Numbered from the stretch's first letter, positions 2,180 to 12,434 are shown. The stretch: DNA of 12,434 nt from an uncultured Myxococcales bacterium (GCA_937879845.1 CALFML010000712.1:1-12434); one strand, 5' to 3'. Numbers and translations are program-made. The notes: generated by a model not told the origin, from the letters alone.

Positions 2180-3256
2180 TCAGAGAGCGGGGCGCGCGGC
2201 TTCGCTCAGGAAGTAGCGCTCCATCTCTTCCGCGGCGGGCTTGTGGCGCGGGGTGTAGCCGCGTGAGGCGCGGCCGCCCCAGCCGTAATAGTTCCAGAAA
2301 TAGACGCCGCGCAGCAGCGGCGAGCCGGCCCACGTCGTGGCAAACGCCTGGTAGCAGCGGCGCTGTTCTTCCAGATCCACCGGACCCTGCGCCCCCTCTT
2401 CCCACGGCCAGGCCGCCGCGCCGCGCTGGCTCAGGTAGCCGACCTCGGTGAGCAAAAGGGGGCGGCCAAGACCGGTGGCGAACGCCTCCAGCTCGCGGCG
2501 CTTGCTCTGCCAGGCGGCGGTCAGCTGCGCCACCGGCACCGGGATCGGATCGGTGCGGCTCGCCAGGGGGAAGTAGGCGCACATGCCCGGCAGATCGCAC
2601 AGGTCGTAGATGCCCACCTGCGCGTAGTGATCCCAGTTGCCGGAGTAGGTGAGCAGCCCGCGATACACCTTGCGAATGCCGGCGACCAGCCGCTGCCAGT
2701 GCGGCCGCTCCGCCAGCCGGTCGAGCGTCGATAGCTCGCTGCCGATGCACAGCAGCGCCAAGCGCTCGCGGCCGGCCAGCTCCGCCAGGTGCAAGAGCAG
2801 GCGTTCGTAGCTCTGCCACCAGGCCGCCGGGTCTTGCGGCTTCAGGGTGCCGCGCCACTCGCTGTCGTTGCGGGGGCTAGACAGCCGCAAGATCGGAAAC
2901 AGCATCACCGAAAGACCCAGCGCCTGCGCCGCCCGCACGGTGTGCAGAAGCGTCGAGTCAGGCGCCGAGAACCGCGGGTGGGCCGAGATCACGGTGCTGC
3001 CGGCGTGTTCCTGGTAGTACGCCAGGGTGAGCGCGACGTGGCTCGCTCCCAGGTCTTTGATCTCGCGCAGCAGGCCGGCGTAGGACCACTGCGGGTCTTC
3101 GTGAAAAAGACCCAGCGATACCCCGCGCTGCAGCGGCGGCAGCGGCGCCTTCGTCTCCGGCTGGGCGGCACTGTTTTTTTCCCCGAGCAGCACCGCTGCC
3201 GATGGACCCAGCGTCGTGCCGAGCAGCGCCCCCAGCGTCCGCCGCCGGCCGAGCAT
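2180..3256 (-). CDS. Secreted clan GH-A-like (beta/alpha)8 glycoside hydrolase, family unassigned (GH5/GH113-like)
   Basis: 358-aa ORF. N-terminal signal, possibly Tat-like (MLGRRRTLGALLGTTLGPSAAVLLG). GH-A style start (RGVSLGLF...YAGLLREIKDLGASHVAL). Candidate acid/base Glu is at residue 174 (LLCIGSELS). Candidate nucleophile is in LLLTEVGY (Glu at residue 271), about 97 aa apart, which is a typical GH-A spacing. Aromatic-rich C-terminus (YFWNYYGWGG). The family assignment rests on motif recall only. Confidence 0.55.
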   Translation of the reverse strand: MLGRRRTLGALLGTTLGPSAAVLLGEKNSAAQPETKAPLPPLQRGVSLGLFHEDPQWSYAGLLREIKDLGASHVALTLAYYQEHAGSTVISAHPRFSAPDSTLLHTVRAAQALGLSVMLFPILRLSSPRNDSEWRGTLKPQDPAAWWQSYERLLLHLAELAGRERLALLCIGSELSTLDRLAERPHWQRLVAGIRKVYRGLLTYSGNWDHYAQVGIYDLCDLPGMCAYFPLASRTDPIPVPVAQLTAAWQSKRRELEAFATGLGRPLLLTEVGYLSQRGAAAWPWEEGAQGPVDLEEQRRCYQAFATTWAGSPLLRGVYFWNYYGWGGRASRGYTPRHKPAAEEMERYFLSEAARPAL

Positions 3257-3259
3257 CGC

Positions 3260-4165
3260 CTAACGTCCCAGCTTGATGAGCACGACCAGCCCCGACCGGC
3301 CCAAGTACATCGTATGCGCGAGGACGTACGGCACGAGGAACCACTCGATCTGCCCGAGCAGCGCCGGGATGTAGAACCAGGCCGGGTAGTGCAAAACGAG
3401 CTTCCCGGTCTCCTCGAGGAGCGTGATCGGCAGGCGAATGAGTCGGCGCAGGAGCGACGGCGGCGCCGCCGGCTTGGGCTCTTCGAAGCGGGTGAAGCCC
3501 ACGACCCGCACCGCCTTTTGCCCGGTCGTCGCTTCGAAGTACTCGGGGCGGCGCATGAACGTGGTCAGCGACATGCCGCTCGCCGCCGCGGTGACGCCAA
3601 ACAGGCCGAAGCCGAGCCAGAACAGCGAGCCATCCACGCCGGCAAACAGCGACCCGGCGGCAACGGCCGGCGCGCTCTGCAGCGCCAGGCGTCCGGCGAT
3701 CGCGGCGATCAGCGTCACCGCCTTGATCTCATCGACCAGGAAATCCAGATACGAGCCGACGACGCTGGTCTTGCCCGTGATGCGCGCCAGCTGCCCGTCC
3801 ACGCAGTCGAGCACGAACGCCAGGTAAACCAGCGCCGCCGACACGCCCAGACCCACGCGATCGCGGCAGAACAGCAGCGTCGCCGCGGACAGAAGCGAGG
3901 TGAAAAGCGACAAGAAGGTGATCTGGTTCGGCGTAACCCGCGTCGATCGCAGCAGGTACACGAGCACCGCCGCCGGCGGGCGGCACACCCAGTTGTTGAA
4001 GCGCAGGTCCTTGGGCTTGAGGCTGCGGCGGTAGATCTCCGGGATGGACAGCGGGCCTACGGGCGGGGGACTGGCGGCGGGTGCAGCGGCGTCCGCATCC
4101 GGCGGGGACGCGGCAGCGGCAGCAGAAGACCCGCCGGGCGGCGGCGCGGTGCCGGCAGCGGCCAT
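3260..4165 (-). CDS. CDP-alcohol phosphatidyltransferase family membrane protein
   Basis: 301 aa. Canonical CDP-OH-P-transferase motif D-G-x2-A-R-x8-G-x3-D-x3-D is present as DCVDGQLARITGKTSVVGSYLDFLVDEIKA. Multiple TM segments. Ala/Pro-rich low-complexity N-terminus (~45 aa). ATG at 4165-4163 immediately follows the gyrA stop (TAAATG on the coding strand). Its stop at 3260 is 3 nt from the GH gene start. Confidence 0.8.
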   Translation of the reverse strand: MAAAGTAPPPGGSSAAAAASPPDADAAAPAASPPPVGPLSIPEIYRRSLKPKDLRFNNWVCRPPAAVLVYLLRSTRVTPNQITFLSLFTSLLSAATLLFCRDRVGLGVSAALVYLAFVLDCVDGQLARITGKTSVVGSYLDFLVDEIKAVTLIAAIAGRLALQSAPAVAAGSLFAGVDGSLFWLGFGLFGVTAAASGMSLTTFMRRPEYFEATTGQKAVRVVGFTRFEEPKPAAPPSLLRRLIRLPITLLEETGKLVLHYPAWFYIPALLGQIEWFLVPYVLAHTMYLGRSGLVVLIKLGR

Positions 4166-6868
<2,703 letters not shown>

Positions 6869-6991
6869 AGAGTGCGCGTTCATATCGCACTTTGCCGCCC
6901 TCAGCAAGTTCCGCGGCTCGGGTTCAGCCTCGCCGGAGCGGACCGCCAGCGCATGCGGCGCGGCGACCGGCTGCCGTGGTATGGATTTGCT

Positions 6992-7666
6992 ATGACGAAG
7001 AAGTGGATTGTTTTGGGCGCCGGACTTTTACTGCTCGTCCTTGCGGGCGCCGCCGCGTCCTACATCGGGCCGCGCAACATCATCGGCATCCTGCGCTACG
7101 ACACGCGCCGCGAGGGAGAGCTCAAGCTCGGCGACGCCGCCCCCGATGTCGAGCTCGTGGCGCTTGGCGATGACACCGGCGCCGGAGCCAGTCGCATCAG
7201 GCTGCGCGAAAAGCTGCACGGGCGGCCCCTTGTGCTGATCTTCGGCAGCTTCACCTGACCCCCGTTTCGGCGCTCGGTCGAGCGCCTCCAACAGCTTTAC
7301 CGAAGCTATAAGGGCCAGGTCGATTTTTTGACCATCTACATTCGCGAGGCGCACCCGACCGACGAATGGCAGATGACCGCCAACGAGCGCGACAGCGTCT
7401 GCTACCGCCAGCCGCACAGCACCGCCGCGCGGGCGGCGATCGCGCGCGACTTCCGCGCCCGCTTCCACTACGAGCTGCCGCTAGTCGTCGACGCGATCGA
7501 AAACCCCGCCGACAAGCTCTACGCCGGCTGGCCGGAGCGCTTCTACATCCTTTCTGCAGAAGGCTCCATCGTCTATAAAGGCCAGCTCGGCCCCTTCGGC
7601 TTCCACCCCGAAGAAGTGGAAGCCTGGCTCAAAGCACACGCTCCCGCTGCGGCGCCGCCAAAATAA
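6992..7666 (+). CDS. Iodothyronine-deiodinase-like thioredoxin-fold selenoprotein (224 aa). In-frame UGA at 7256-7258 is read as selenocysteine.
   Basis: ATG at 6992 ([26 protein letters not shown], a TM helix). The frame is open to TGA at 7256-7258. It continues in the same frame through 7259-7327 with no stop, into track ORF 7328..7666 (7328-5972=1356, divisible by 3). The joined translation is ...[51 protein letters not shown]...[48 protein letters not shown] matches the deiodinase active site (FGSCTUPPF / FGSATUPPF). [12 protein letters not shown] matches the deiodinase YIEEAH.SDGW block. PERFYIL..G.IVYKG..GP....EEV matches the deiodinase C-terminal block. Stop TAA at 7664-7666. Confidence 0.8.
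7269..7286 (+). promoter_or_regulatory. Putative bacterial SECIS hairpin directing Sec insertion at UGA 7256-7258
   Basis: Perfect inverted repeat GGCGCUC / GAGCGCC (7269-7275 / 7280-7286) around a GGUC tetraloop (7276-7279). The hairpin starts 11 nt after the UGA. From memory, the minimal E. coli fdhF SECIS is a 17-nt upper stem-loop placed 11 nt downstream of the UGA, with apical loop GGUC whose G and U contact SelB. Confidence 0.6.
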
Positions 7667-7791: not shown

Positions 7792-7863
7792 AGCGGGAGA
7801 AGGGACTTGAACCCTCGACGTCCACCTTGGCAAGGTGGCACTCTACCACTGAGTTACTCCCGC
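7792..7863 (-). tRNA. tRNA-Gly (anticodon GCC), 72 nt, no encoded CCA
   Basis: Reverse complement is GCGGGAG-TA-ACTC-AGTGGTA-GAGT-G-CCACC-TTGCCAA-GGTGG-ACGTC-GAGGG-TTCAAGT-CCCTT-CTCCCGC-T. It forms a 7-bp acceptor stem, D arm, a 5-bp anticodon stem with loop uuGCCaa, a 5-nt variable loop, and a T arm with a TTCAAGT loop. It closely resembles E. coli tRNA-Gly(GCC). Confidence 0.9.
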
Positions 7864-8001: not shown

Positions 8002-9387
8002 ATGATGCGGGGTATGTTGACGCAGAGCGAGTCTCCGGGGCCCGGAGCGGAGTTTCAGACCAGCGCGGATCTTTTATCGTTCATCGAGGCTTCGCCGACC
8101 CCGTTTCATGCCGCGGCGAGCGCGGCGCAGCGGCTTATTGCCAGCGGGTTTGTCGAGCTGCGGCCCGACAGCTCCTTTTCGCAGCTGCAGCCGGGGCGGT
8201 ACTTCGTTCCGGTGGGGGATGCGACGATCGTCGCGTTCGTGCTGCCGCAGCTGGCGGCGGGGAAGCTGCGCGGCTTCCGCATCGTCGGGGCGCACACCGA
8301 CAGTCCGAACCTGCGGCTCAAGCCGCGCGCCCCGTATGAGAAGGCCGGCTATCTGCAGCTCGGGGTCGAGGTCTACGGCGGCGTGCTCCTAAACTCCTGG
8401 CTCGATCGCGATCTGCTCCTGGCCGGCCGCGTCGTGTACCGCGACAGCGAGGGGCGGCTGCGGCGCGGCCTTGTGCGGCTTGGGCAGCCGGTGGTGCGGG
8501 TGCCGCAGCTGGCGATTCATCTTGAGCGCGAAGTAAATGAAAAGGGACTTGTACTAAACCGCCAAGAACACCTGGCGCCGATCATGGGTCTTGCGGGGAG
8601 CCTGCCCGGTGGGGCGGGCGGACGGCACGGCGGACGCGATCTGGCGCTGCTCCATGGGCTGTGCGCGCAGGCGCTCGGCATCGATGAGGCGGCCGTCGTC
8701 ACCACGGAGCTCATGCTGCATGACGCGCAGCCGCCGGCGCGGGCGGGGCTTGGGCAGGAGCTTATTCTGGCGCCGCGCCTTGACAACCTGGCGATGTCGC
8801 ACGCGGCGGTGCTGGCCCTCGGGCGGGCCGCCGCGCCGACCGACCCCGACAGCGGGCTGGTTCCGCTCGTCGCGCTGTTTGACCACGAAGAGGTCGGCAG
8901 CAACAGCGCGTACGGGGCGCAGGCGCCGATCCTGCCGACCATCCTGGAGCGGCTGGTGCTGGCGACCGGTGGCGACCGCGAGCGCTACCACCAGGTGATC
9001 GCCGGCTCGCTGTGCGTCTCGGCGGACATGGCGCATGCGGCGCACCCCAACTACCTCGATCGTCACGAGGCGCACCACCGCCCGGTGCTCAACGGCGGGC
9101 CGGTGATCAAGAGCAACGCCCAGCAGCGCTACGCCACCTGTGCCCGCACCGCCGCCCTGTTCCAGGAGCTCTGCCGGCGCGTCGAGGTGCCGGTGCAGCA
9201 CTACGCGCACCGCACCGACCTGCCGTGCGGCAGCACCATCGGGCCGATCACGGCGACCCTGCTCGGCATCCCCACCGTCGACGTCGGCAATCCGATGCTC
9301 AGCATGCACTCGGCGCGCGAGCTGGCCGGCGCGGCTGACCCGGAAAACATGTCGCGCCTGCTCGCCCACTTTTTGCTTTCGCGCTAG
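8002..9387 (+). CDS. apeB: M18 family aspartyl aminopeptidase (aminopeptidase 2-like)
   Basis: 461 aa. The block IVGAHTDSPNLRLKPRAPYEKAGYLQLGVEVYGGVLLNSWLDRDLLLAGRVVY matches the M18/DNPEP signature (GAHTDSPCLRVK...VGVETYGG...WFDRDL.LAGRV). C-terminal ...PMLSMHSARE is typical of M18. Alternative start ATG at 8014 (MLTQ...). Stop TAG at 9385-9387. Confidence 0.85.
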   Translation: MMRGMLTQSESPGPGAEFQTSADLLSFIEASPTPFHAAASAAQRLIASGFVELRPDSSFSQLQPGRYFVPVGDATIVAFVLPQLAAGKLRGFRIVGAHTDSPNLRLKPRAPYEKAGYLQLGVEVYGGVLLNSWLDRDLLLAGRVVYRDSEGRLRRGLVRLGQPVVRVPQLAIHLEREVNEKGLVLNRQEHLAPIMGLAGSLPGGAGGRHGGRDLALLHGLCAQALGIDEAAVVTTELMLHDAQPPARAGLGQELILAPRLDNLAMSHAAVLALGRAAAPTDPDSGLVPLVALFDHEEVGSNSAYGAQAPILPTILERLVLATGGDRERYHQVIAGSLCVSADMAHAAHPNYLDRHEAHHRPVLNGGPVIKSNAQQRYATCARTAALFQELCRRVEVPVQHYAHRTDLPCGSTIGPITATLLGIPTVDVGNPMLSMHSARELAGAADPENMSRLLAHFLLSR

Positions 9388-9414
9388 CGTGGCAACACGT
9401 CGCGTCTGCTCGAA

Positions 9415-11025
9415 TCAAAACAGCTTCGGATCGAGGCTCGGGAAGAGGTTATCGCGCGACTCGCAATCGGCGACAAACGCTTCGTCGATCGTCCCCGATT
9501 CGAGATCGCTCGCCAGCTTGGTAAAGCGCTGCAGATGCGTCTTGACCCGCGATTCGGCATACGACACCGCCGTCCCGGTCTTCATGATGAACGCCCAATC
9601 CGACGACTGCGCGAGCAGCAGCTCACGTCCGGCTTGGGTGAGCGCCCGCTGAATCAGCGCCTGCTGCGGACTTTCTTGCGGATCTTTGCTCGCAAACTTG
9701 GTCACAAGCTCGTGCAGTCTCGATTCGGCGTGGTGCAGGTGACGGTAAATCCAGTCGTTGCTCTGATCGAGCCACACCGCGGAATAGCCGCCTTCACCCC
9801 ACGACGACGGCGCCGGTTCGCAGACCGCGTTGACGGGATGATCGACAAGATAACCGCTCGCGGTCTGAAGCTGCACGACACTGCCGGGCTCGCTGCACAG
9901 CCGCAGCACTTCGCCCAGAAACATCGGCCCCTCGAACCACCAGTGGCCAAACAGCTCGGCGTCATACGGCGAAACAATCACCGGACGGCGATCCATCCGC
10001 TGCGACAGCCAGGCAATCTGCGCTTGGCGCTTTTCGACGAAGTCCCGCGCATGCTCGCGCGCTTTTGCCCGCGCCAGTTCCGGCTGATACGGCGCTTTGT
10101 CTTGCAGATCGACGCGCGCCCCCGTCACCCGGTGGTACTTGTAGCCGGTGTTGACGCGGATGCCGTCGGGATGAATGTACGGAGCGATCTGCTCAAGCGG
10201 CCTGTCAAAGCCGATGTCGCGATAAAATTCGCGATACACACCGTCGGCGGGATAGCCTTCCGTCGACGACCACACCTGCTTTGATGACATCAGGTCGCGA
10301 CCAAACGCCGCCACGCCAGCGCGGGTGAAAATCGGCGCATGCAGCCCGAGCGGCGGACGCGGTCGCGCATACGTCAGTCCGTGCGCATCCAGGAAGAAGT
10401 AGCGCAGGTCTAGCTCGGCGAGCAGCTCGTCCAGCCCGTCGACGTAGCCACACTCAGGCAGCCAGATGCCGCGCGGATAGCGACCAAAACACTCGCGGTA
10501 GTGACGGACCGCGATAATCAGCTGCGCCCGACGCGCCGACGGCTTTTGCACCACCGGCAGATAGGCATGCGTCGCACAGGTCGTAATCAGTTCGACCGTG
10601 CCGCGATCTTGAAGCTGACCAAATGCCGCGACCAAGTCACTGTCCAGCGAACGCCACAGCGCCCGCAGCTCGGTAAACCGCGACAGGTAAAAGCGCACCA
10701 GCTCCGATTGCGCGGGATCTGCTTTGGCGCGGGTCAGTTCCTCTTCCCCGAGCCGCAGCAGTCTATCGAGATAGCTGCGATAGCGGTCGGTCAAGAGCTT
10801 GTCGCGCAGCATCGAACACAGCGTCGGCGAAAGCGACAGCGTCAGCTTGGGCCCAGATGATGTCGTGCCAAACTTTTGCAGCTCTTGCACAAGCGGCAGA
10901 TACGTCGCGGTGATCGCTTCGTAGAGCCAGTTTTCTTCCAGGTGATAGGAATTTTCGGGGTGGCGCACATACGGCAGGTGCGCGTGAAGCAAAAGAAGCA
11001 GATCACCCCGAGCCGCCGCCGACAT
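9415..11025 (-). CDS. GH57 family 1,4-alpha-glucan branching enzyme-like protein
   Basis: GH57 N-terminus LLLLLHAHLPYVRHPE. Nucleophile motif GIWLPECGY. Acid/base motif SPYDAELFGHWWFEGP. The C-terminal alpha-helical region (...WGEGGYSAVWLDQSNDWIYRHLHHAE...) is characteristic of GH57 branching enzymes (TK1436/TTHA1902 type). Start is chosen at ATG 11025-11023 (MSAAARGDLLLL...). It overlaps the upstream stop by 1 nt (TGATG). The track's first ATG at 11103 would overlap the upstream gene by 78 nt and adds a non-conserved 26-aa extension. Confidence 0.8.
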   Translation of the reverse strand: MSAAARGDLLLLLHAHLPYVRHPENSYHLEENWLYEAITATYLPLVQELQKFGTTSSGPKLTLSLSPTLCSMLRDKLLTDRYRSYLDRLLRLGEEELTRAKADPAQSELVRFYLSRFTELRALWRSLDSDLVAAFGQLQDRGTVELITTCATHAYLPVVQKPSARRAQLIIAVRHYRECFGRYPRGIWLPECGYVDGLDELLAELDLRYFFLDAHGLTYARPRPPLGLHAPIFTRAGVAAFGRDLMSSKQVWSSTEGYPADGVYREFYRDIGFDRPLEQIAPYIHPDGIRVNTGYKYHRVTGARVDLQDKAPYQPELARAKAREHARDFVEKRQAQIAWLSQRMDRRPVIVSPYDAELFGHWWFEGPMFLGEVLRLCSEPGSVVQLQTASGYLVDHPVNAVCEPAPSSWGEGGYSAVWLDQSNDWIYRHLHHAESRLHELVTKFASKDPQESPQQALIQRALTQAGRELLLAQSSDWAFIMKTGTAVSYAESRVKTHLQRFTKLASDLESGTIDEAFVADCESRDNLFPSLDPKLF

Positions 11026-12434
11026 CACAGACCTCCGCTCTTGCCTGGCTGTGGTGTAAGACCACTGCTTGTCGGACTGCTCGACGGAGCATCGACGATC
11101 CATTCCGAGTCCGTCACCGGTAGCTGCCCGGACGGCGGAGAACTCCCCGTCCGCCAGGGAAGCTCACGCTCTTTGTGCGGCGTCTGGGGCCGTGACAGCA
11201 CGATATGTTCACGCTGCCTCCCGTCGCCAGAAACCGGCTGCACATGCGCCCATTCGATCGCGGTTTCCGACGATGGATGCATCGGCGGCAAGCGCACTGA
11301 CTGCGACTGTGCGATCGGCGAAAACAGACCGTCTTTCGACACAAGACCCACCGCCGCCCGCAGGTGCGCCCCGGCTTTCGGTGACTCCAGATATTTTTTG
11401 CCGTGGTGCTGGTGCAGCGAAAGATCGCGAATTTCGCGGTTTTCGCGCCCCTGCGGGAGCTGCGTCGTGATGAACACCCGCAAAATCAGACGGCCATCGC
11501 CTTCAGAAATCCCGAGCTGCGACTGCGCTTGCGCAAGCCCCGCCGCCGTCACTTCCCAGTAGATGAAGTACCAGTGCGGATCTTTGGACAGGATCTCGAC
11601 TTCGTCGCGCCCATACGTTTCGGGCAGCGCGTCATCGTGAGCCGCTCGTCGCCGCTGTTTTGGTTCAGGCGAGCTGTCGCCCTGACCACTGCCATCCTGA
11701 TGTGTAAAAACCGCCGCGGACGACGAGTGCCCGCCGTCGTGTGGTGGTCGTCCGCCTGCTTCCCTGTCTGTCCCGGAACCCATGGCAACTCCAGCTCCGT
11801 CGCGCGCCGCCAAAACGTCGCGGTCTGCAGACGGAGTCCCCCCGGTTAGCTGTCTTGTGGTGGCGATGTCTTTGTGGATCTGCGCGACCAGCTCCGCCAC
11901 CTGGGAAAACTTCTTCTCGTCACGCAGCCGGGCCACAAAGCACAATCGCAGCTCGCAGCCATACAGCGAGGGAAGCGTTTCACCCGCCGCGAGCAAAAGG
12001 TGTGCTTCGACGGAGAGTGGCGACGTTTCGACCGTACCCGGACCCTGGAACGTTGGATTATATCCAAGGTTTACCGCCGCAGGGTGTCTAGCCGCCACAG
12101 GCCGCAACACCGACGGGGACAACGGGTCAATCGGCGCCAAAATTTCCGCCCACGCCGCATAGACACCGGGCCGCAGCTTCACATCCGAATGCACGCGCAG
12201 GTTGGCTGTCGGGACATCGATGGTTCGCCCTCGCCCATGGCCATGCACCACCGTCCCTTCGACCTCGGGAGCCCGCCCAAGCAAAAGCGCCGCCCGGTCG
12301 ACATCCCCGTCGCCAAGCGCCTTGCGAATCAGCGTCGATGAACAGATCAGCGTATCGCCGCTCGCCGTCGAAACCGTGATCGCGCCAAGCTGCAGATCGG
12401 AAGAGCACACGTCTGAACTCCAGTCACGCCAATG
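11025..12434 (-). CDS. ribF: Bifunctional riboflavin kinase/FMN adenylyltransferase (RibF), 5' end off-window, fused in-frame to a ~275-aa C-terminal extension containing a DUF4912-like domain
   Basis: The frame is open to the window edge; the track's start at 12410 is a GTG. The N-terminal part matches the RibF FAD-synthetase C-terminus (ICSSTLIRKALGDGDVDRAALLLGR, compare E. coli ISSTAVRQALADDNLALAESLLG). It also matches the riboflavin kinase domain (VVHGHGRGRTIDVPTANL...GVYA...NLGYNPTF...VEAHLLL...LYG.ELRLCFVARLRDEKKFSQVAELVAQIHKDIATTRQL). Where E. coli RibF ends, this ORF instead continues with no stop. A G/S/D/P-rich linker (residues ~186-267) is followed by KDPHWYFIYWEV...GRLILRVFITTQ...REIRDLSLHQHHGKKYLESPKAGAHLRAAVGLVSKDGLFSPIAQSQSVRLPP (nt ~11280-11609). 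As I recall, this resembles Pfam DUF4912, a family often encoded next to GH57 genes. Stop TGA at 11027-11025. Confidence 0.7.
   Translation of the reverse strand, partial: HWRDWSSDVCSSDLQLGAITVSTASGDTLICSSTLIRKALGDGDVDRAALLLGRAPEVEGTVVHGHGRGRTIDVPTANLRVHSDVKLRPGVYAAWAEILAPIDPLSPSVLRPVAARHPAAVNLGYNPTFQGPGTVETSPLSVEAHLLLAAGETLPSLYGCELRLCFVARLRDEKKFSQVAELVAQIHKDIATTRQLTGGTPSADRDVLAARDGAGVAMGSGTDREAGGRPPHDGGHSSSAAVFTHQDGSGQGDSSPEPKQRRRAAHDDALPETYGRDEVEILSKDPHWYFIYWEVTAAGLAQAQSQLGISEGDGRLILRVFITTQLPQGRENREIRDLSLHQHHGKKYLESPKAGAHLRAAVGLVSKDGLFSPIAQSQSVRLPPMHPSSETAIEWAHVQPVSGDGRQREHIVLSRPQTPHKERELPWRTGSSPPSGQLPVTDSEWIVDAPSSSPTSSGLTPQPGKSGGL

Follow-up and report, generated by a model that had tools for sequence, protein, structure and literature searches.

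A RibF-DUF4912 Fusion Gene of Uncultured Polyangia Probably Derived from Operon Neighbors by Loss of a Stop Codon

Introduction

The closest described relatives of the gene studied here are bifunctional RibF proteins, exemplified by Corynebacterium ammoniagenes FADS (CaFADS; 2X0K/5FO1; TIGR00083), stand-alone DUF4912 proteins encoded upstream of GH57 enzymes, and the general "Rosetta-stone" class of fusions that arise between operon neighbors by loss of a stop codon. For DUF4912, a widespread domain with no known function, nothing on its role was found in the searchable literature, in which two papers name the domain without addressing its function and the family PF16258 is unmentioned, and the GH57 literature, as judged by titles and abstracts, does not address the neighboring gene. 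In cyanobacteria, the Rho_N-DUF4912 form is referred to as a "Rho-like" protein whose role is unknown (PMC13613805). The gene itself is located on a stretch of 12,434 nucleotides from an uncultured Myxococcales bacterium (GCA_937879845.1, CALFML010000712.1:1-12434; the whole stretch is termed the window in the following), for which a preliminary description had reported RibF fused in frame to a long linker and a DUF4912-like domain. Comparison with related loci establishes that this fusion is genuine and recurrent at the DNA level. It was probably generated by a stop-loss merger of operon neighbors that is tolerated or near-neutral, leaves the chemistry of RibF unchanged and allows DUF4912 to be made separately as well.

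Results

Domain Architecture of the Fused Gene

The fused open reading frame (ORF) occupies positions 11025-12393 of the minus strand. It runs in a single frame that terminates with TGA (11027-11025) and is open to the window end, and translation of the reverse complement from the window end to this TGA comprises 469 codons. When the translation was compared with Pfam, the Flavokinase domain (PF01687; amino acids 52-196 of 469, nt 11847-12281) was recovered with an E value of 1.2e-32 and 113 bits against a cut-off of 19.6, followed by DUF4912 (PF16258; amino acids 274-390, nt 11265-11615) with an E value of 4.2e-21 and 75.9 bits against a cut-off of 29.4. The latter match spanned profile positions 1-115 of 118 and placed the protein in this Pfam family. 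The order of RibF, long linker and DUF4912 in one frame was thereby borne out, and the peptides quoted in the preliminary description (AQIHKDIATTRQL, DPHWYFIYWE, LILRVFITTQ and HLRAAVGLVSKDGLFSPIAQSQSVRLPP) are all encoded in this frame. The RibF ORF had been assigned there to positions 11025-12434. The frame is indeed open over this range, but it belongs to the minus strand, which had been left unstated, and the last 41 nucleotides are adapter sequence, so that the first ~14 residues of the translation are artefactual.

NCBIfam RibF equivalog models matched amino acids 22-197 with scores of 93-133 bits, which remained below their cut-offs of 184-461 (184 for TIGR00083; PRK05627 sub-models) because the gene is truncated by the contig end. 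The motifs SSTLIR (CSSTLIRKAL) and PTAN (VPTANL) and the glutamate of SVEAHLL are present in the window translation, PTAN and the glutamate aligning to CaFADS. The PF01687 match, the PTAN motif and the catalytic glutamate identify the window protein as a riboflavin kinase. Of the FAD_syn (FMN adenylyltransferase) domain, the last ~35 residues alone are inside the window; the former designation as FAD synthetase/riboflavin kinase is thus accurate for a complete kinase and for just the end of the synthetase domain. A full-length counterpart, P0001, was retrieved by protein search. It is a 608-amino acid protein, 99% identical, that consists of FAD_syn, Flavokinase and DUF4912. PF06574 is present in it together with GNFDGVHRGH, and all RibF motifs (GNFDGVHRGH, SSTLIR, PTAN, SVEAHLL) as well as the predicted fold are intact.

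Residues 12-337 of P0001 aligned with the C. ammoniagenes RibF structures (5fo1/2x0k) with an E value of 1.5e-38. Homology to solved RibF proteins ends at ...RQLTG (nt 11841), after which ~270 more codons follow. In the AlphaFold2 (AF2) model of full-length P0001, the RibF residues 1-340 had predicted local distance difference test (pLDDT) values above 90, linker residues 346-411 were at ~32, the DUF4912 core (residues 412-525) was again above 90, and the tail was of low confidence. The linker is therefore real and disordered as had been proposed, but with ~66-75 residues it is somewhat shorter than the earlier estimate of ~80. The stretch of it that stems from the N terminus of the DUF4912 protein had pLDDT values below 50 (residues 1-50 of a DUF4912-only model), and the linker was poorly conserved with many indels.

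Recurrence of the Fusion in Independent Assemblies and Diverged Lineages

The same architecture at 99% identity was found in ENA ERZ27248705 (a 59-kb contig) and ERZ27268148, in NCBI GCA_035333665.1 and in the GTDB genome DAORGN01. P0001, which stems from a metagenome-assembled genome (MAG) and is named "riboflavin biosynthesis protein RibF" by NCBI, is coded on three contigs from different assemblies and in the GTDB species genome L013. Across the junction (nt 11644-11893), no difference separated the window from L013 (100% identity), and identity to L001 was 99.6%; for L002 and L003 it amounted to 99.3-99.4% over the aligned stretch. A single ORF of the same kind was also present in diverged lineages, namely in L034 with a RibF part 79% identical, in P0002 (624 amino acids, 57% identical, 8 contigs) and in P0004 (591 amino acids, 53% identical, 7 contigs). 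The spacers of the four fused lineages (GTPSADRDVLAARDGAGVA, GTPSQKTDATATGDGAGVA, GTSLHITGGRSARSEDGVA and ETPRGGWPGAPHGGGVT) are different sequences, and all of them are in frame and stop-free.

These data bear on a sequencing or assembly artefact, in which a homopolymer indel or a chimeric join would have merged two genes; a frameshift artefact had already been considered in the preliminary description. The spacer opens in a run of six G residues (C-run at 11838-11843 on the plus strand) exactly at the end of RibF, and the assembly is imperfect, given the adapter at the end of the contig and the abrupt break of identity and synteny near 9390. However, Illumina sequencing seldom miscalls a 6-nt homopolymer, the junction agrees with four other assemblies, and the spacers of three diverged lineages are non-identical, in frame and stop-free. 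Because such spacers differ among diverged lineages and the fusion recurs across assemblies, the artefact was rejected as extremely improbable.

When 1.84 billion representatives of 50% clusters were searched with HMMER, P0004 was the sole match spanning both domains among the best 150 representatives. Judged from these sequence searches, the fused architecture is confined to one small clade and one 50%-identity cluster.

Split Relatives and Operon Order

A scan with a DUF4912 alignment of one genome per GTDB species yielded 23 loci, all of them from Myxococcota/Polyangia MAGs (some labeled "Pseudomonadota" or "Deltaproteobacteria"), the neighbors of which were assigned by tblastn and stop-to-stop analysis. 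ribF was located directly upstream of DUF4912 in 20/20 loci with enough upstream sequence, and a GH57 branching enzyme gene was located directly downstream in every locus with enough downstream sequence. This order is kept across deep divergence within the Polyangia, RibF identity reaching down to 41% and GH57 identity to 58%. As to whether orthologous loci have separate genes or the fusion, both were encountered: ribF and DUF4912 are separate in most related loci and fused in a small group. In L004 (86-kb contig, RibF 71% identical), ribF ends with ...QLTGESR-TAG, followed by 44 nt of non-coding sequence and the DUF4912 ATG in another frame. In L018 (3956), L019 (3854), L027 (250) and L028 (3863), both genes share one frame with a lone TAG between them, and one substitution would restore the fusion. 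In P0292, the ribF stop overlaps the DUF4912 start. Because most relatives keep adjacent separate genes in the same order, the fusion is best described as loss of a stop codon between operon neighbors.

In a neighbor-joining tree of the GH57 proteins, the fused loci L010, L006, L015/L034 and L013/window fell into one clade. The split group L004, L014 and L016-L019 was nested within it, and all outgroups were split. The residues (G/E)T(P/S) directly after ...QL(T/V)(G/S) are common to all fused lineages and lean towards a single origin.

Recoding in the split relatives was also considered. Programmed -1 frameshifting at the G-run was rejected, the only slippery-like heptamer, G GGA AAG, lying outside the ribF zero frame. 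In L004, DUF4912 is read in the -1 frame with respect to ribF, and this frame contains no stop codon over the 88 nt preceding the end of ribF. No stop read-through signal was found in the same-frame lineages (L018/19, L027/28), which make up 2 of ~14 independent split lineages, below the 1/3 expected by chance.

A Retained Shine-Dalgarno Sequence and Internal ATG

The junctions of 5 fused and 6 split loci were aligned with the DUF4912 ATG as anchor. The block TGGAGT(T/C)(G/A)C(C/G/T)-ATG-G was invariant in all of them, and the 27 nt upstream were unconserved; the spacer as a whole was unconserved apart from this block at its 3' end. The corresponding arrangement in the window is GGAGTTGCC-ATG. 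Stand-alone DUF4912 proteins on the long contigs L004, L014 and L016-L019 start with MVFTKDTE... or MGFTKDTE..., and the fused proteins retain the methionine together with the (G/V)xxKDxE motif. The block is non-coding in the split lineages, and the conserved element is for this reason taken to be a Shine-Dalgarno (SD) sequence. The fused lineages keep it even at synonymous positions (GGA-GTT/GTC before ATG). Because the SD/ATG block is conserved in fused and split lineages alike, DUF4912 is probably still initiated independently in the fused lineages, in addition to being part of the fusion.

If the internal ATG were unused, DUF4912 would exist solely as the C-terminal domain of RibF, at a fixed 1:1 ratio. 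Ribosomes entering at the ribF start must indeed read on to 11025, and elongating ribosomes can occlude internal initiation sites. No stop codon follows the RibF domain, and every RibF therefore carries the tail unless it is processed. Nevertheless, the invariance of the SD block at synonymous positions and the retention of M(G/V)xxKDxE are hard to explain for an unused site, and exclusive production of the fusion protein is considered very unlikely.

Two 255-amino acid "DUF4912-only" entries from ~1.1-kb contigs (P0003 and P0005) begin exactly at the internal ATG. Their interpretation as close split relatives was dropped, as P0003 has the same N terminus as the protein that would start from the internal ATG of L034, a fused locus. 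Both are probably truncated calls of fused genes, which inflate the apparent frequency of splitting, and they were left out of the split counts.

A search for an internal promoter or terminator revealed no sigma-70-like site and just weak terminator-like hairpins within coding sequence. One hairpin with a T-run (GCGGGCACTCGTCGTCCGC GGCGGTTTTT; 11711-11734, minus strand) follows the internal ATG closely, within the sequence coding for the linker; the region contains 4 terminator-like sites versus 1.2 expected, and this hairpin is probably fortuitous. In an Rfam scan of the window, the tRNA at 7792-7863 was the one match; neither an FMN riboswitch nor any other element was detected close to the ORF.

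The DUF4912 Module and Its GH57 Partner

AF2 modeling of the DUF4912 part with a 22-sequence alignment predicted a core (residues ~55-165, pLDDT 90-98) of seven strands and one helix, flanked by N- and C-terminal regions of low confidence. Structure prediction of the C-terminal part, which had been suggested in the preliminary description, thus yielded a confident core that resembles fibronectin type III (FN3) domains. Fold searches with this core returned generic FN3/Ig matches, and no match to a carbohydrate-binding module or an enzyme was of sufficient strength for a functional assignment. A comparison of the DUF4912 profile with PDB sequences gave no match, and the Pfam fn3 model did not match, so membership in the fibronectin type III family is not indicated by sequence. 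Sequence identity between DUF4912 and FN3/Ig-like beta-sandwiches is just ~10-15%, and DUF4912 has an additional helix inserted after strand 2 and before strand 3. The scores indicate a shared generic fold rather than homology.

Following the Pfam core, a conserved tail motif was recognized (SETAIEWAHVQPVSGDGRQREHIV...HKERELPWRTG, ~11145-11267, minus strand; consensus ETxVEWxHV..GDGxQRE..H.ER.LPWR). The 22 sequences show no or hardly any variation at residues E177, W178, H180, V181, P183, G188, E192, I194, E205, R206, L208 and W210, and AF2 predicted the motif to be non-globular (pLDDT 40-64). Motifs of this kind are typical of segments that fold on a partner, and the conserved tail may be a partner-binding segment.

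The downstream gene encodes a branching enzyme according to its matches to PF03065 (Glyco_hydro_57; E 2e-31) and PF09210 (BE_C; E 3e-34), and its product is 100% identical to that of the L001/L013 gene. Its start (MSAAARGDLLLLLHAHLPY...) was chosen from the conserved stop/start overlap. The stop codon of DUF4912 and the ATG of GH57 overlap in 23 of 24 loci (TGATG or TAATG in 21, ATGA in 2) and abut in the remaining one. The SD sequence of GH57, GGAGG at 11036-11032, is embedded in the conserved last codons of DUF4912 (KSGGL). A distant Rho_N-DUF4912 gene (27% identity) also overlaps a GH57 branching enzyme gene downstream of it, by 4 nt, and has no ribF upstream. The DUF4912-GH57 association mentioned in the preliminary description accordingly holds in 24/24 loci and in this relative outside the clade. 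Because this relative has GH57 without ribF, the linkage of DUF4912 to GH57 is regarded as general and that to ribF as lineage-specific. We infer that DUF4912 serves the GH57 enzyme as a partner or scaffold and is not itself catalytic.

Rho_N (PF07498) did not match the window protein at E<=1, and the region upstream of its core is disordered. A Rho_N/SAP-like helix module (MDRDEL.KLKLEALR.LA..G...) opens the distant DUF4912 proteins L026, L031, L032, L035 and L036, and it was seen in outgroups only. The window clade has a disordered region in its place, and some other relatives have a weak TPR_14 match.

The linkage pattern also bears on an adaptive origin of the fusion, in which DUF4912 would target or scaffold proteins at glycogen or GH57 and the tethered RibF would localize FMN/FAD synthesis there or have its activity depend on the state of the glucan. 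The order of the three genes, conserved across deep divergence in the Polyangia (20/20 informative loci), the ribF/DUF4912 stop/start overlap of P0292 and the persistence of the fused frame in lineages 53-57% identical agree with this idea, and "Rosetta-stone" fusions often mark interacting proteins. On the other hand, ribF and DUF4912 are separate genes in the sister group and in every outgroup, DUF4912-GH57 occurs without ribF outside the group, and the spacer is unconserved with the SD/ATG of DUF4912 kept, as though independent DUF4912 were still needed. Furthermore, ribF is often found in operons with functionally unrelated housekeeping genes, and we know of no flavin-dependent step in alpha-glucan branching. 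An adaptive fusion is therefore judged unlikely. The coupling of flavin nucleotide status to alpha-glucan metabolism put forward in the preliminary description is unsupported as well, ribF and DUF4912 being mostly separate operon neighbors, the fusion being confined to one 50%-identity cluster and the SD/ATG being kept. A physical variant appears more doubtful still. In it, the long-lived fused frame and the class-wide operon would reflect binding of DUF4912, as an adaptor, to glycogen or GH57, by which the essential FMN/FAD synthetase would be brought to the enzymes of glycogen synthesis. Such coupling could serve as a metabolic checkpoint in starvation or sporulation, during which glycogen is built and consumed by myxobacteria, and, if true, it would provide the first functional handle on DUF4912.

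Feature Coordinates and Quality of the Contig

The coordinates of the fused gene, its signals and its downstream neighbor are compiled in Table 1.

Table 1. Positions of the RibF-DUF4912 fusion, its internal signals and adjoining features in the window
Feature	Position (nt)	Strand	Basis
RibF part: FAD_syn end and complete riboflavin kinase, ends ...IATTRQLTG	11841-12393	-	Pfam, NCBIfam, structure homology, AF2
Spacer, originally intergenic between ribF and DUF4912, read in the fusion as 19 stop-free codons GTPSADRDVLAARDGAGVA	11784-11840	-	Comparison with L004, L018, L019
Disordered G/S/D/P/R-rich linker: spacer plus low-complexity N terminus of former DUF4912 protein	11619-11816	-	AF2 pLDDT
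Retained Shine-Dalgarno region GGAGCTGGAG; proximal GGAG 11792-11789, 5 nt before internal ATG	11789-11798	-	Junction alignment
Internal ATG (M357 in P0001, M218 in the window translation), at which the stand-alone DUF4912 genes of split relatives start	11781-11783	-	L004, L014, L016-L019
DUF4912 (PF16258) core: seven strands and one helix, FN3-like beta-sandwich (LPETYGRDEVEILSKDPHWYFIYWEV ... GLFSPIAQSQSVRLPP)	11265-11615	-	Pfam, AF2
C-terminal tail of DUF4912 protein; final codons KSGGL hold GH57 SD	11028-11264	-	Alignment, AF2
TGA stop of fused ORF; its A shared with GH57 ATG (TGATG)	11025-11027	-	Direct reading
GH57 1,4-alpha-glucan branching enzyme gene, 536 amino acids	9415-11025	-	Pfam Glyco_hydro_57 and BE_C
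Illumina TruSeq adapter read-through AGATCGGAAGAGCACACGTCTGAACTCCAGTCAC plus index GCCAAT, non-genomic	12394-12434		Exact 34-nt adapter match from 12394

Similarity to L001, L002, L003 and L013 stops at 12393, and the contig ends inside ribF. The adapter translates to a spurious ...WSSDVCSSDL at the ORF start. Over 9394-12393, the window is 98-100% identical to L001/L013. To the left of ~9390, where the GH57 gene (end at 9415) and an M18 peptidase gene (end at 9387) converge, identity falls abruptly to 60-80%, and from 8272 leftwards no similarity is left. The genes beyond this break are also arranged differently, the window having the tRNA, gyrA, a CDP-alcohol phosphatidyltransferase, GH113 and SPFH versus PmbA/TldD and ValRS in L001. 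The break of identity and synteny together with the adapter suggests a chimeric assembly or a recombination breakpoint, by which the fusion finding is unaffected.

The tRNA gene (7792-7863, minus strand; Rfam RF00005, 68.6 bits) is located between the M18 aminopeptidase gene and gyrA. Two ORFs on the plus strand, 2789-5347 (852 amino acids) and 5972-7258 (428 amino acids), had no Pfam match; as they run antisense to the minus-strand gyrA gene (4166-6907), both are likely to be spurious shadow ORFs of GC-rich sequence.

Discussion

The most probable course of events is the following. In an uncultured clade of Polyangia (Myxococcota), the genes for RibF, DUF4912 and the GH57 branching enzyme form a tight, conserved operon. 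In one sub-clade, which includes the window organism, the stop codon of ribF would have been lost and a spacer of 17-19 codons brought into frame. Ribosomes coming from ribF would continue through the spacer and the whole of DUF4912 and end at the TGA that overlaps the GH57 start. Two products would be expected, a ~66-kDa RibF carrying a flexible tether of ~70 residues and DUF4912, and a ~27-kDa stand-alone DUF4912 initiated from the internal SD/ATG. DUF4912 with its extended C-terminal motif may act with GH57 as a partner, scaffold or glucan-binding module, and such a role would explain the stop/start-coupled co-translation with GH57. The fusion as such would be tolerated or near-neutral and would not constitute a new regulatory device, the conversion of riboflavin to FMN and FAD remaining unchanged.

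Several points weigh against this stop-loss scenario. All sequences are short-read metagenome assemblies. The use of the internal start in the fused lineages and the DUF4912-GH57 partnership are deduced solely from nucleotide conservation and from gene order plus translational coupling, respectively. One gain followed by one re-split and two gains are equally parsimonious on what is a simple neighbor-joining tree of one protein. Finally, the fused frame has stayed open across lineages 53-57% identical, which could mean that the fusion protein itself is under selection and not neutral.

Taken alone, the fusion is a textbook merger of operon neighbors; both domains and the mechanism are known, and the protein is already public as RibF, although the architecture itself is undescribed in the searchable literature. 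That NCBI labels a fused protein of 608 amino acids simply "RibF" calls for caution in annotation. The more useful lead comes from DUF4912, whose translation is consistently coupled to that of GH57; a role of the domain in binding GH57 or glucan as a partner is a hypothesis open to testing. Moreover, with natural fusions and split sister lineages side by side, neutrality of such fusions can readily be weighed against selection.

In comparison with known systems, the locus shares with other stop-loss fusions of operon neighbors the presence of split orthologues in the same order, the conversion of a spacer into a linker and the visible downstream initiation signals. No mechanistic difference from this class was apparent; the pair of a flavin cofactor enzyme and a glycogen-locus accessory domain is undescribed in the searchable literature. 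With stand-alone DUF4912 proteins encoded upstream of GH57, including the Rho_N-DUF4912 type (PMC13613805), the window gene has in common the Pfam domain and the overlapping stop/start with GH57, and its start-codon context is that of the stand-alone orthologues. Unlike them, it is read through from ribF without an upstream boundary of its own and is devoid of the Rho_N/SAP-like N-terminal module. With respect to bifunctional RibF proteins such as C. ammoniagenes FADS, the N-terminal ~340 residues align end to end, and the GxFDGVHRGH, SSTxIR and PTAN motifs as well as the catalytic glutamate are present, whereas the fused protein adds a C-terminal extension of ~270 residues, made up of disordered linker, DUF4912 and tail, that is absent from every solved RibF.

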